NCBI GenBank assembly: GCA_964394685.1
Contig: CAYMYO010000001.1
Location: 64,040 to 128,039 of the forward strand
Length of the DNA: 64,000 bases
From: an uncultured Gammaproteobacteria bacterium
Lineage (GTDB): Bacteria; Patescibacteriota; Microgenomatia; UBA10105; UBA927
Direction of reading: 5' to 3'
Of this stretch, positions 15,678 through 17,324 are shown in pieces; the stretch's first letter is position 1; each line of letters begins with the position of its first letter. The translations under genes and the position numbers were made by a program. Below the pieces are notes generated by a model, which had not been told where the DNA came from, did no database searches, and saw nothing but the letters and a program-made list of their open reading frames with translations.

Positions 15678-17324
15678 ATGCGTAGGTTACTGGTAATTGT
15701 GCTGTTTGGAGCATGTTTTATGCCTTTAGTGGCATTGGTTGTACCGGGATTACCCATAACTAATGACGGGCAAGATCATGTTGCAAGAATTGCAAATTTT
15801 TATCAATCTCTTTTAGATGGAAATAGTGTTCCCCGATGGGCTGGAAATTTAAATTGGGGGTATGGACACCCGATATTAATGTTTTTGTATCCGCTGTCTT
15901 CGTATATCGGATCCTTCTTTCACGCTGTTGGTTTGTCCTATGTAGATGCAATCAAAACGGTATTTGCACTCGCATTTATTGCAAGTGTATTGGCAATGTA
16001 TCTATGGATAAAAACTGCATTCGGAAAACGAGCGGGTATCATTGCGGCACTCTTATATGGATTTGCGCCATACCGGTTTGTAGACCTATATATTCGAGGT
16101 GCAATAGGGGAACACGTCGCTTTTGTTTTCCCGCCTCTTATTCTTTTCTTTTTATATGTACTTGCCACACAAAAGAAATATGTCGTTCATGGTATTGGAC
16201 TTAGTATTTCTATTGCCTGTCTAATACTGTCTCATAACGCATTTTCTTTAATGTTCCTCCCGATTATTGCTCTCTATGCACTGTATCTATTTTTTACAGA
16301 AACAAAACGATCCCCATACTTTATACTTTATACTTTATACTTTATACTTCTCGGTTTTGGTCTTGCAGCATTTTTTTGGGTGCCGGCATTTCTTGAAGGA
16401 AAATATACCTTACGTGATATCGTGACAAAAGGGGAGGCATTACAACGATTTGTTCCACTCTCTATGTTTTTATATTCACCTTGGGTAATTGGCGGAGGAG
16501 ACGTTACGACAAAGTTTTTGGGACTCCCTCAATGGTTGGGAGTTCTTGGGTCGATTATGATACTTGTTAAAACAAAAGAGAAAAAATTGCGATGGTTTAT
16601 TGGAGGAACACTTTTGCTTCTTATCGGAAGTCTTTTTATTATGACTCAGTGGTCTCGATGTATATGGGAAAAAATTATGGTTATTCAAAATTTTCAGTTC
16701 CCATGGCGATTTCAGATGATTTCTGTATTTTTGACCGCGCTTTTATCCGGAATTAGCATTCCGTATAGTATTAAAATTCTTAAGATAAAACAAAATGTAA
16801 AAAAATATTTATTTATCGTATTTTGTGTCGCTTCAATATTTGTTACTGTCCACATGTGGAAGCCAAAAGGATATACACTTAAACATGAATCCTTCTATAC
16901 AGGGATATATAATAGTACAACGGACACAGGAGAAAGCAGTCCTGTATGGTCTGTACGGTTTATGGAATACGCTCCATCGAAACGAATGGATGTGATAGGT
17001 GGCATTGCAACTGTCACCCAGCGGAGTCGTACAACAACTGAACATGTGTACACAATACATGCGATGACGCCAAGTCAATTATTGGAAAATACACTCTATT
17101 TCCCGGGATGGAATGTGTATGTTGATGGGAAGAAAACTGATATTGAATTTCAAGATCCTCATCATCGGGGCATCATGACATTTCGGATTGATGAGGGGAT
17201 TCATGAAGTGCGTGTAGTATTTCAAAATACGAAAATTCGCATTTACGCTGAATATATTTCGCTCATAAGTTTCGGTATCTGTATAATGCTTATTATACGA
17301 GGATGTATATGGAGAAAAAAATAA
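15678..17324 (+). CDS. Membrane protein with PTPS-related domain (PF10131/COG5617-like), putative glycosyltransferase
   Basis: The sequence ITNDGQDHVARIANFYQSLLDGNSVPRWAGNLNWGYGHPILMFLYPL...YRFVDLYIRGAIGE matches the family. The C-terminal LYFPGWNVYVDGKKT motif is also present. The gene contains heptad array R1. Confidence 0.6.
   Translation: MRRLLVIVLFGACFMPLVALVVPGLPITNDGQDHVARIANFYQSLLDGNSVPRWAGNLNWGYGHPILMFLYPLSSYIGSFFHAVGLSYVDAIKTVFALAFIASVLAMYLWIKTAFGKRAGIIAALLYGFAPYRFVDLYIRGAIGEHVAFVFPPLILFFLYVLATQKKYVVHGIGLSISIACLILSHNAFSLMFLPIIALYALYLFFTETKRSPYFILYTLYFILLGFGLAAFFWVPAFLEGKYTLRDIVTKGEALQRFVPLSMFLYSPWVIGGGDVTTKFLGLPQWLGVLGSIMILVKTKEKKLRWFIGGTLLLLIGSLFIMTQWSRCIWEKIMVIQNFQFPWRFQMISVFLTALLSGISIPYSIKILKIKQNVKKYLFIVFCVASIFVTVHMWKPKGYTLKHESFYTGIYNSTTDTGESSPVWSVRFMEYAPSKRMDVIGGIATVTQRSRTTTEHVYTIHAMTPSQLLENTLYFPGWNVYVDGKKTDIEFQDPHHRGIMTFRIDEGIHEVRVVFQNTKIRIYAEYISLISFGICIMLIIRGCIWRKK
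16316..16350 (+). repeat. Heptad array R1: (ATACTTT)x4 + ATACTTC, inside CDS (encodes PYFILYTLYFILL)
   Basis: Direct reading shows ATAC recurring every 7 nt at 16316, 16323, 16330, 16337 and 16344. Confidence 0.85.

Follow-up and report, generated by a model that had tools for sequence, protein, structure and literature searches.

A heptanucleotide array within a transmembrane-helix segment of a Microgenomates glycosyltransferase gene as a probable in-frame coding microsatellite

In neuO, the O-acetyltransferase gene of the Escherichia coli K1 prophage CUS-3, an (AAGACTC)n tract at the 5' end of the coding sequence is read as a 7-residue repeat, and the full-length protein is obtained only in frame; between 3 and 53 units have been found, 65.6% of 64 E. 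coli K1 genomes are OFF, and subpopulations differing by one unit in either direction have been measured (PMC13001214). Haemophilus influenzae possesses long and highly strain-variable heptameric simple sequence repeats (SSRs), including (TGAAAGA)13-38 in the hmw1A/hmw2A promoter and the intragenic (AATTTTG)14 and (AACAACC)1-13, and some of the intragenic tracts have frameshifted alleles (PMC2651432). For long units, PhasomeIt applies a cut-off of at least 5 units (PMC6321876). Heptameric long SSRs are over-represented in prokaryotes, with polymerase slippage put forward as the cause (Mrazek 2007, as cited in PMC4692102 and PMC4679880), and dispersed heptamers are exemplified by GGGAATC in Xanthomonas, GGGGA(T/C)T and STRR in Nostoc and TAACTGA in Beggiatoaceae (PMC4692102, PMC4679880). 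Borg elements, as outlined in PMC9879509, carry fast-evolving in-gene tandem repeats that add peptide segments at permissive sites. Here we report on a heptanucleotide array at positions 16316-16350 of a 64,000-nucleotide (nt) stretch of contig CAYMYO010000001.1 (the whole stretch is called the window below), which lies within the gene of a predicted membrane glycosyltransferase.

A sequence-only reading of this DNA had proposed that the array is a slipped-strand phase-variation switch. Part of that proposal held: a non-triplet repeat is present in a coding sequence of surface-glycan type, a one-unit change would truncate the product, and the unit number of the tract varies in a relative. The variation was, however, in frame only. 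Taking the evidence together, the tract is probably a slippage-prone, in-frame coding heptamer microsatellite that is kept by slippage under selection for frame, and not a demonstrated ON/OFF switch.

The tract and the glycosyltransferase gene that carries it

16316-16350, plus strand: heptanucleotide array (ATACTTT)4 followed by ATACTTC, coding for residues 213-225 (Tandem Repeats Finder, TRF; helix start in the AlphaFold2, AF2, model)
15678-17324, plus strand: intact gene for a polytopic membrane glycosyltransferase of 548 residues (Pfam PTPS_related, GT-C fold)

Direct reading of the window gave four ATACTTT units followed by ATACTTC, and TRF reported the array at 16316-16349 with period 7, 4.9 copies (4.86 perfect units) and 100% matches, confirming the repeat as first described. 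Its position in the middle of the coding sequence was likewise correct, the tract lying in frame within the intact 548-residue open reading frame (ORF) and encoding P-YFILYTLYFIL-L. Perfect tandem runs of at least three copies in the window numbered three at period 7 and none at periods 5, 6 and 8-15. Chance is excluded and the tract is genuine: in 300 order-3 Markov simulations, period-7 runs never reached 21 nt, and the longest had 20 nt compared with 34 nt in the real sequence.

The 548-residue protein matched Pfam PTPS_related (E 1.4e-10). Its AF2 model had a mean predicted local distance difference test (pLDDT) score of 84.6 and a predicted template modelling (pTM) score of 0.88, with residues 213-225 beginning a helix that extends over residues 213-229 (means of 94 and 96 for the 10-residue pLDDT blocks). 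The top Foldseek matches in the PDB were the GT-C glycosyltransferases STT3, PglB, AglB, AftA and ArnT (best E 3.6e-6). Along its whole length the protein aligns colinearly with hundreds of homologs from Microgenomates/Gottesmanbacteria-type bacteria of the candidate phyla radiation (CPR); the identical protein (P0001) has a single record, and the next closest one shares 76% identity.

The surrounding window is a glycosylation cluster of more than 60 kb with YfhO-, PMT_2-, GT87-, GT2- and GT4-type genes, many of them GT-C, GT2 and GT4 paralogs, together with a flippase-type Polysacc_synt gene, a DegT aminotransferase and epimerases. Scans of the 64 kb for tRNA genes and Rfam families returned no matches, and no rRNA was found. 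The PTPS_related match, the GT-C fold and the cluster context suggest that the host gene acts on a surface structure.

When one or two units were added or removed in silico, the product shrank to 234-253 residues, in agreement with the truncation that had been predicted for a one-unit change, and a change of three units left the frame intact. The paralog at 21221-22813, correctly described as lacking the tract, is 11 residues shorter at this site and free of the repeat.

Orthologous sites, length variants and reading frame

For comparison we used 79 loci (1.48 Mb) from other Microgenomates genomes, each encoding an ortholog of the 548-residue protein; L numbers denote these loci and P numbers the proteins of the set. 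Perfect arrays with other units occupy the same helix site in L005 (GGTTATT, 5.1 copies), L009 (TTCTTGT, 4 copies), L020 (TATTCAC, 4.7 copies) and L026 (ACTACAT, 4.7 copies), and imperfect arrays were found there in many further orthologs. Within the 42 nt preceding the conserved GFGLSA motif, an identity at lag 7 of at least 0.65 was reached in 12 of 80 orthologs, compared with 0.05% of 5608 control windows from the same genes. The peptides at the site vary widely between clades while the 7-nt periodicity recurs. With or without an array, site length was within 2 residues of the common length in 75 of the 79 genomic orthologs, the reading frame was continuous through the site in all 79, and no indel was detected in the tract segment among 27 aligned orthologs. 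Given this constancy in length and frame, the array fills a permissive segment whose length is fixed and which is bounded by a K/R-rich loop and the conserved motif.

In the clade with the ATACTTT unit, the tract stays at five units with scattered point changes, some of them synonymous:

Window: ATACTTT four times, ATACTTC
L096: ATACTTC, ATACTTT, ATGCTTT, ATACTTT, ATACTTC
L097: ATACTTC, ATACTTA, ATACTTT, ATACTTT, ATACTTC
L084: ATACTTT, ATACTTA, ATACCTT, ATACTTT, ATACTCA

The number of five units is constant across 24-50% protein divergence, and the array of the window is the purest in its clade. Compared with L014, the tract had a nucleotide identity of 0.87 and the remainder of the gene one of 0.58, and third codon positions matched in 11 of 13 cases in the tract versus 0.39 elsewhere (Fisher p 0.0013); the same test gave p < 0.03 in eight of nine comparisons. 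The sequence-only reading had named conservation at the protein level with synonymous change as the sign of selection on the protein; instead, third positions in the tract were conserved far above the average of the gene. Because its synonymous sites are so much more conserved than the rest of the gene, some force acts at the DNA level on the repeat: either slippage re-homogenises the array or the DNA is itself selected, and protein-level selection alone does not account for the pattern.

Other parts of these proteins also showed heptad periodicity. At a second transmembrane (TM) helix (window residues ~372-388), heptamer arrays occur in L005 (11063-11099), in L010 (11041-11072) and in protein P0033, with the sequences LLLIGYCLLVIGL, AFIIPYSLFIIL and YCFLLIVYCLLLIV. 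Two loops (alignment A1 columns ~205-225 and ~436-452) contain hydrophilic, heptad-periodic inserts of variable length.

Variation in unit number was observed at the orthologous tract in one cluster of proteins at 90% identity, which contains P0017 (575 residues, YFILNTLYFIL) and P0132 (582 residues, YFILNTLYFILNTLYFIL). At the DNA level, L084 (P0017) has five units and L080-L083 (P0132) have eight, a difference of 21 nt and 7 residues, the longer allele carrying a duplicated 21-nt block ATACTTT-ATACTTA-ATACCTT. The flanks of both alleles are homologous to those of the window tract. L080 and L084, which are 99.6% identical, differ over 4781 nt by 20 mismatches and a single 21-nt indel, and this indel is in the tract; the four 8-unit contigs may include re-assemblies of one sample. 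A scan of Joint Genome Institute (JGI) metagenome contigs for the flanks with a gap of 4-8 units retrieved one 8-unit and one 5-unit contig and no other allele. The proposed check for repeat-number heterogeneity in relatives thus yielded five versus eight units at the orthologous tract; alleles of four, six or seven units were not found. In 19 other strain clusters, tract variation was absent. The orthologous tract is a hotspot of length mutation, and the sole variant observed, a difference of three units, is in frame.

Out-of-frame alleles were not seen in the consensus assemblies: none was found at the tract site among the 79 orthologs or in the metagenome scan, no array, including the approximately 30 well inside coding sequences, lay at a frame switch, and no tract frameshift occurred in 20 strain clusters (106 member sequences). 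Arrays at ORF junctions proved to be gene ends or starts. Three candidates were rejected. P0154 (220 residues) ends exactly at the tract as an OFF allele might, by a GGA-to-TGA nonsense change just after the tract and without slippage; a split PMT_2 gene in L087, which resembled a frameshift, is interrupted by a scaffold gap with Ns; and 7-residue differences in other strain clusters (P0032/P0141 and others) reflect start-codon calling and not tract variation. In L085 (3661-3663, ortholog P0106), a GGA-to-TGA change directly after the tract region, accompanied by a nearby C-to-A change, gives a product of 220 residues in one metagenome sample. The repeat plays no part in this change, which could be either a genuine null allele or oxidative damage from sequencing.

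Other period-7 arrays in the window and in related loci

Above period 4, perfect runs of at least three copies in the 79 loci were almost exclusively of period 7 (31 runs, compared with 3, 1 and 1 at periods 5, 6 and 8 and none at periods 9-15). With mismatches allowed, the window and the 79 loci together contained 42 period-7 arrays, 33 of them inside ORFs and approximately 30 with at least 90 open codons on each side. All 20 array-bearing ORFs scanned against Pfam were glycosyltransferases (PMT/PMT_2, PTPS_related, YfhO, GT2, GT4), a uniformity from which functional enrichment cannot be judged because every comparison locus is a glycosylation cluster. Arrays occurred at 2.5 per 100 kb in polytopic membrane ORFs and at 2.6 in soluble ones; non-ORF DNA had 5.3, only about twice the ORF density. 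Such densities are what a general mutational process would be expected to give after filtering by selection. Hydrophobic units, for example ATACTTT (YFILYTL), were located in TM helices and signal peptides, and A-rich units (KFQISNF, LKTQNSK, KVSSIKY) in loops, interdomain linkers of GT4 proteins and C-terminal tails; arrays were also present at gene ends and in intergenic DNA.

TRF detected additional period-7 arrays in the window, starting at 18108, 59764, 60750 and 61321, with an ATACTT-type unit or its reverse complement. Five of the six arrays re-detected in the window belong to this ATACTT/AAGTAT family, and several units still coexist per locus.

18108-18144, plus strand: imperfect TTTATAC array (5.3 copies, 76%) at the core of the signal peptide encoded by the DUF5667-like gene 18082-18600 (TRF)
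59764-59799, plus strand: AGTATNA array of the reverse-complement family, five copies, left inverted arm, overlapping the TAG stop (59763-59765) of the GalE-like epimerase gene 58785-59765 (TRF)
60750-60782, plus strand: ATACTTN array, 4.7 copies, right inverted arm, starting with CCATACTTTATACTT like the tract at 16314 (TRF)
61321-61376, plus strand: (AAGTATC)3, the palindrome CCCGCCTGCCGGACGGGCAGG, then AAGTATC and AAGTATG, in frame in the interdomain linker of the GT4 gene 60789-61970 (TRF)

Some of these positions recur in other genomes. The L014 ortholog of the DUF5667-like gene carries a perfect GTCATTG array (4.3 copies, 14179-14208) at the same signal-peptide site, so that the core of this signal peptide is a second hot spot shared with different units. 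The 3' end of the GalE-like gene has an array in five genomes (L051 at 13295, L067 at 14842, L068 at 13814, L071 at 13346 and the window at 59764); L067, L068 and L071 have related A-rich units (AAAATTC, AATTCAA, CTCAAAA), L051 has AAGTTAA and the window AGTATNA. The palindrome CCCGCCTGCCGGACGGGCAGG (61342-61362, 21 nt) is GC-rich and unique within the window, and across the loci GC-rich islands showed no general association with arrays. Similar peptides, of PALPAGRQ type, adjoin heptad-periodic inserts in the orthologs P0017 and P0044. Near its 5' end, the same GT4 gene contains a perfect 14-nt tandem repeat, ATATACAAAATACG, in 2.9 copies (60873-60913). Elsewhere in the window, a 39-nt tandem repeat (53176-53293; 3.0 copies, 97% matches, 13 residues per unit) is located in ORF 52369-53454, which had no Pfam match.

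The arrays at 59764 and 60750 are inverted with respect to each other and enclose two minus-strand ORFs, the only ones of this orientation in the surrounding region:

59811-60185, minus strand: IVP/bAvd-like four-helix-bundle gene (PF05635, Pfam E 2.5e-35), inside the inverted arrays
60178-60747, minus strand: ORF with a GT4 N-domain only, inside the same arrays

Since they are the only ORFs of that orientation there, the enclosed segment is possibly an inversion or a cassette resembling an intervening sequence (IVS). All four IVP/bAvd-like (PF05635) genes in the window and the loci lie between inverted heptamer arrays. The unit differs from genome to genome, and the arms, of 25-29 nt, are 88-90% complementary:

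Window: left arm 59771-59799, right arm 60754-60782 (29 nt, 90% complementary), 954 nt apart
L068: left arm 12422-12447, right arm 12805-12830, 357 nt apart
L009: left arm 19508-19532, right arm 19939-19963, 406 nt apart
L010: left arm 19205-19229, right arm 19617-19641, 387 nt apart

In L010, the 14-mer ATTGCTTATTGTCC is found at the right arm of the IVP gene and at both TM-helix sites. L095 contains inverted AAGTAT/ATACTT arrays only 24 nt apart (1835-1926) that could fold into a hairpin; the site follows the PTPS tract at a distance of about 1.8 kb, apparently at the junction of the GT2 and DUF5667-like genes, and is possibly an 'empty' version of the array-flanked cassettes. Intervening sequences of 23S rRNA can carry an IVP (PF05635) ORF between inverted flanks. 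The arrangement described here shares with them a PF05635 ORF within inverted flanks able to form a long stem, but differs in that the cassettes are found in glycosylation clusters, no rRNA was found in the window, and heptamer arrays form the arms. As a lead to the origin of such repeats, their association with IVP/Avd-like cassettes stands apart from the question of the tract.

A second perfect array, (CTTACTG)4, had also been reported from the sequence, and direct reading and TRF (19431-19459, 4.1 copies or 4.14 perfect units, 100% matches) agreed with it:

19432-19459, plus strand: (CTTACTG)4, read as LLLTAYCLL where a hydrophobic segment begins
18581-19753, plus strand: GT87/MptA_B-like membrane glycosyltransferase gene of 390 codons with a weak GT87 Pfam match, holding the second array

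Its host had been called a DUF2029-like gene. ORF 19127-19753, which holds the array, is only the distal part of this 390-codon gene, which is split by an in-frame TAG at 19064-19066. The gene aligns without gaps to a 378-residue ortholog in L098 (56% identity) that has Trp at this position, and the TAG is likely a TGG-to-TAG nonsense mutation or a sequencing error. Most of 53 orthologs have the same length at the second-tract site (0-2 residues off), and the closest ones, in L010, L098 and L003, have the similar peptides LLLIAYCLL, ILLLSYCLL and LLLYAYGLM. Apart from a short stretch in L010, the 53 orthologs had no periodic DNA there (lag-7 identity 0.12-0.51). The perfect array is thus specific to the window genome, in a gene that would already be disabled if the TAG is not a sequencing error.

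Origin of the arrays and comparison with described repeat systems

We propose that the tract, in the part of the gene predicted to encode the first half of a TM helix of a GT-C glycosyltransferase, is a member of a lineage-wide class of 7-nt arrays of about four to five units in the glycosylation clusters of Microgenomates. These arrays would occupy permissive coding segments, namely TM helices, signal peptides, loops, interdomain linkers and gene ends. Since 7 and 3 share no factor, a heptamer array gives a 7-residue repeat in every frame, and T-rich units would supply hydrophobic helix sequence while their reverse complements would supply hydrophilic loop sequence. Replication slippage may create and re-homogenise the arrays, and selection for frame and helix length may remove all but the in-frame alleles (plus or minus three units, 21 nt, 7 residues). 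Steps of three units, such as the one observed, would renew an array without a null intermediate. Slips of a single unit must arise mechanistically and would yield reversible knock-outs, with no indication that these are retained or used. The tract is accordingly described as a mutational hotspot and a source of 7-residue length variants.

Several observations weigh against this proposal. Assembled contigs represent the majority consensus and would hide a minority of OFF cells, and the next relative of the window genome is only 76% identical in protein, so that out-of-frame alleles may exist at low frequency. Selection for mutability would likewise be compatible with the long-term purity of the repeat and with the A-to-T change toward the consensus unit that recurs in two lineages, and genes of the host's class are typically phase-varied. 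Furthermore, simple slippage leaves the sharing of units within genomes, in both orientations, unexplained (odds ratio (OR) 3.5, p 1e-4), and local slippage does not explain the inverted arrays around IVP-like genes.

The main alternative is an adaptive contingency locus, in which one-unit slips reversibly switch the glycosyltransferase ON and OFF and diversify the surface glycan, for example against phage or in host attachment, with repeat purity held by second-order selection for mutability. The non-triplet unit within a coding sequence, the truncation on a one-unit change and the surface-type gene are all features of such a locus, and further points in its favour are a GT-C gene in a cluster of more than 60 kb with many GT-C, GT2 and GT4 paralogs, the variable unit number in a related population, the conserved synonymous sites, the purest array of the clade in the window, and two perfect arrays 3 kb apart in two different glycosyltransferase genes. 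Of the features that matter for such a locus, OFF alleles and a sufficient tract length were not seen. A neutral phase would leave about two thirds of alleles OFF, as in neuO, and none was seen in the 79 orthologs, the roughly 30 arrays in coding sequences, the 20 strain clusters or the scanned metagenome contigs. At 4.9 and 4.1 perfect units, both tracts are below the PhasomeIt cut-off (borderline for the first), the unit number is steady at 5 despite the protein divergence within the clade, the tract is mid-gene and not 5'-proximal, and arrays are equally dense in soluble glycosyltransferase genes and denser in non-coding DNA. We therefore consider a contingency locus rather unlikely, although it is the strongest of the alternatives. 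It is distinctly unlikely that the tract in the coding sequence is instead a copy or footprint of a genome-specific family of dispersed repeats that a dedicated mechanism (such as a mobile cassette, templated copying or conversion) spreads or maintains. Pairs of units at a distance of at most 1, in any rotation and on either strand, made up 21.6% within genomes versus 7.3% between genomes (OR 3.5, p 1e-4), and this explanation would also accommodate the dominance of the ATACTT/AAGTAT family in the window (five of six arrays), the enclosure of all four IVP/bAvd-like genes by inverted arrays with 88-90% complementary arms, and the 14-mer shared in L010 between the IVP right arm and both TM-helix sites. 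The cassettes, however, number only four, the within-genome excess amounts to roughly three-fold where AT-rich, stop-free units already set the baseline high, and much of the sharing is inherited at orthologous sites. Neither a transposase, a reverse transcriptase nor a target-site duplication was seen, and the difference in unit between genomes at one site is simpler under local slippage. A broader version, in which the Microgenomates heptamer arrays are an undescribed dispersed family that is actively spread or converted, remodels surface-glycan enzymes and is possibly linked to IVP/Avd cassettes, would have partly genome-specific units installed in frame, the T-rich strand into TM helices and the A-rich strand into loops, and replaced at fixed sites without a change in length; as a whole we regard it as unlikely, and offer it only tentatively.

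Selection at the protein level, with a heptad-periodic TM helix favoured and the DNA periodicity as a by-product, is very improbable. The motif YFIL(N/Y)TLYFIL is common to the closest relatives, the site lies within a confidently modelled helix, and the peptide of the second tract resembles that of its closest orthologs, which lack periodic DNA. A period of 7 residues, however, needs only a 21-nt period, for which the 7-nt units need not be identical; conservation of third positions in the tract is far above the gene average, the site peptides diverge between clades where the 7-nt periodicity recurs, and the same arrays exist in non-coding DNA. Chance, or low-complexity composition in an AT-rich genome, would have the GC content of about 36% in its favour, but is barely conceivable given that no simulation reached 21 nt at period 7, that the window has no comparable runs at periods 5, 6 and 8-15, and that above period 4 the runs in the 79 loci are near-exclusively of period 7. 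A coding microsatellite shaped by slippage and by selection for frame thus remains the explanation that we favour.

In the literature library searched, no specific report of heptamer repeats or phase variation in CPR bacteria or Microgenomates was found. The known excess of heptamers in bacteria is mostly intergenic, the few cases known from coding sequence (neuO, hmw1A) being on/off switches of the classical type; new here is a lineage of uncultured, host-dependent bacteria that tolerates in-frame 7-nt arrays in membrane and soluble glycosyltransferase genes. If the arrays slip by single units in populations, they would provide a large phase-variable repertoire of surface glycans, relevant to interactions of episymbionts with hosts and phages. 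If they do not, microsatellite dynamics would write and rewrite TM helices under a constraint on frame and length.

Compared with described systems, the tract resembles neuO in having a 7-nt unit within the coding sequence of an enzyme that modifies surface glycans and in being read as a 7-residue repeat. It differs in that four to five units are placed mid-gene in a TM helix, at constant number and in frame in all alleles seen, with one variant that differs by three units. Heptameric SSRs at surface-protein genes, some of them within ORFs, are shared with H. influenzae, where in contrast length varies widely and out-of-frame alleles occur, neither of which was seen here. The STRR, GGGAATC and TAACTGA repeats share with the present arrays the excess of period 7, genome-typical units and both orientations; those repeats are, however, mostly intergenic with one dominant unit per genome, whereas here 33 of 42 arrays are in ORFs and several units coexist in each locus, differing at orthologous sites. 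In-gene tandem repeats at permissive sites are also a feature of Borg elements, whose in-gene units are reportedly multiples of 3 nt and create disordered regions, whereas in Microgenomates units of 7 nt also build TM helices, without changing the length of the helix.

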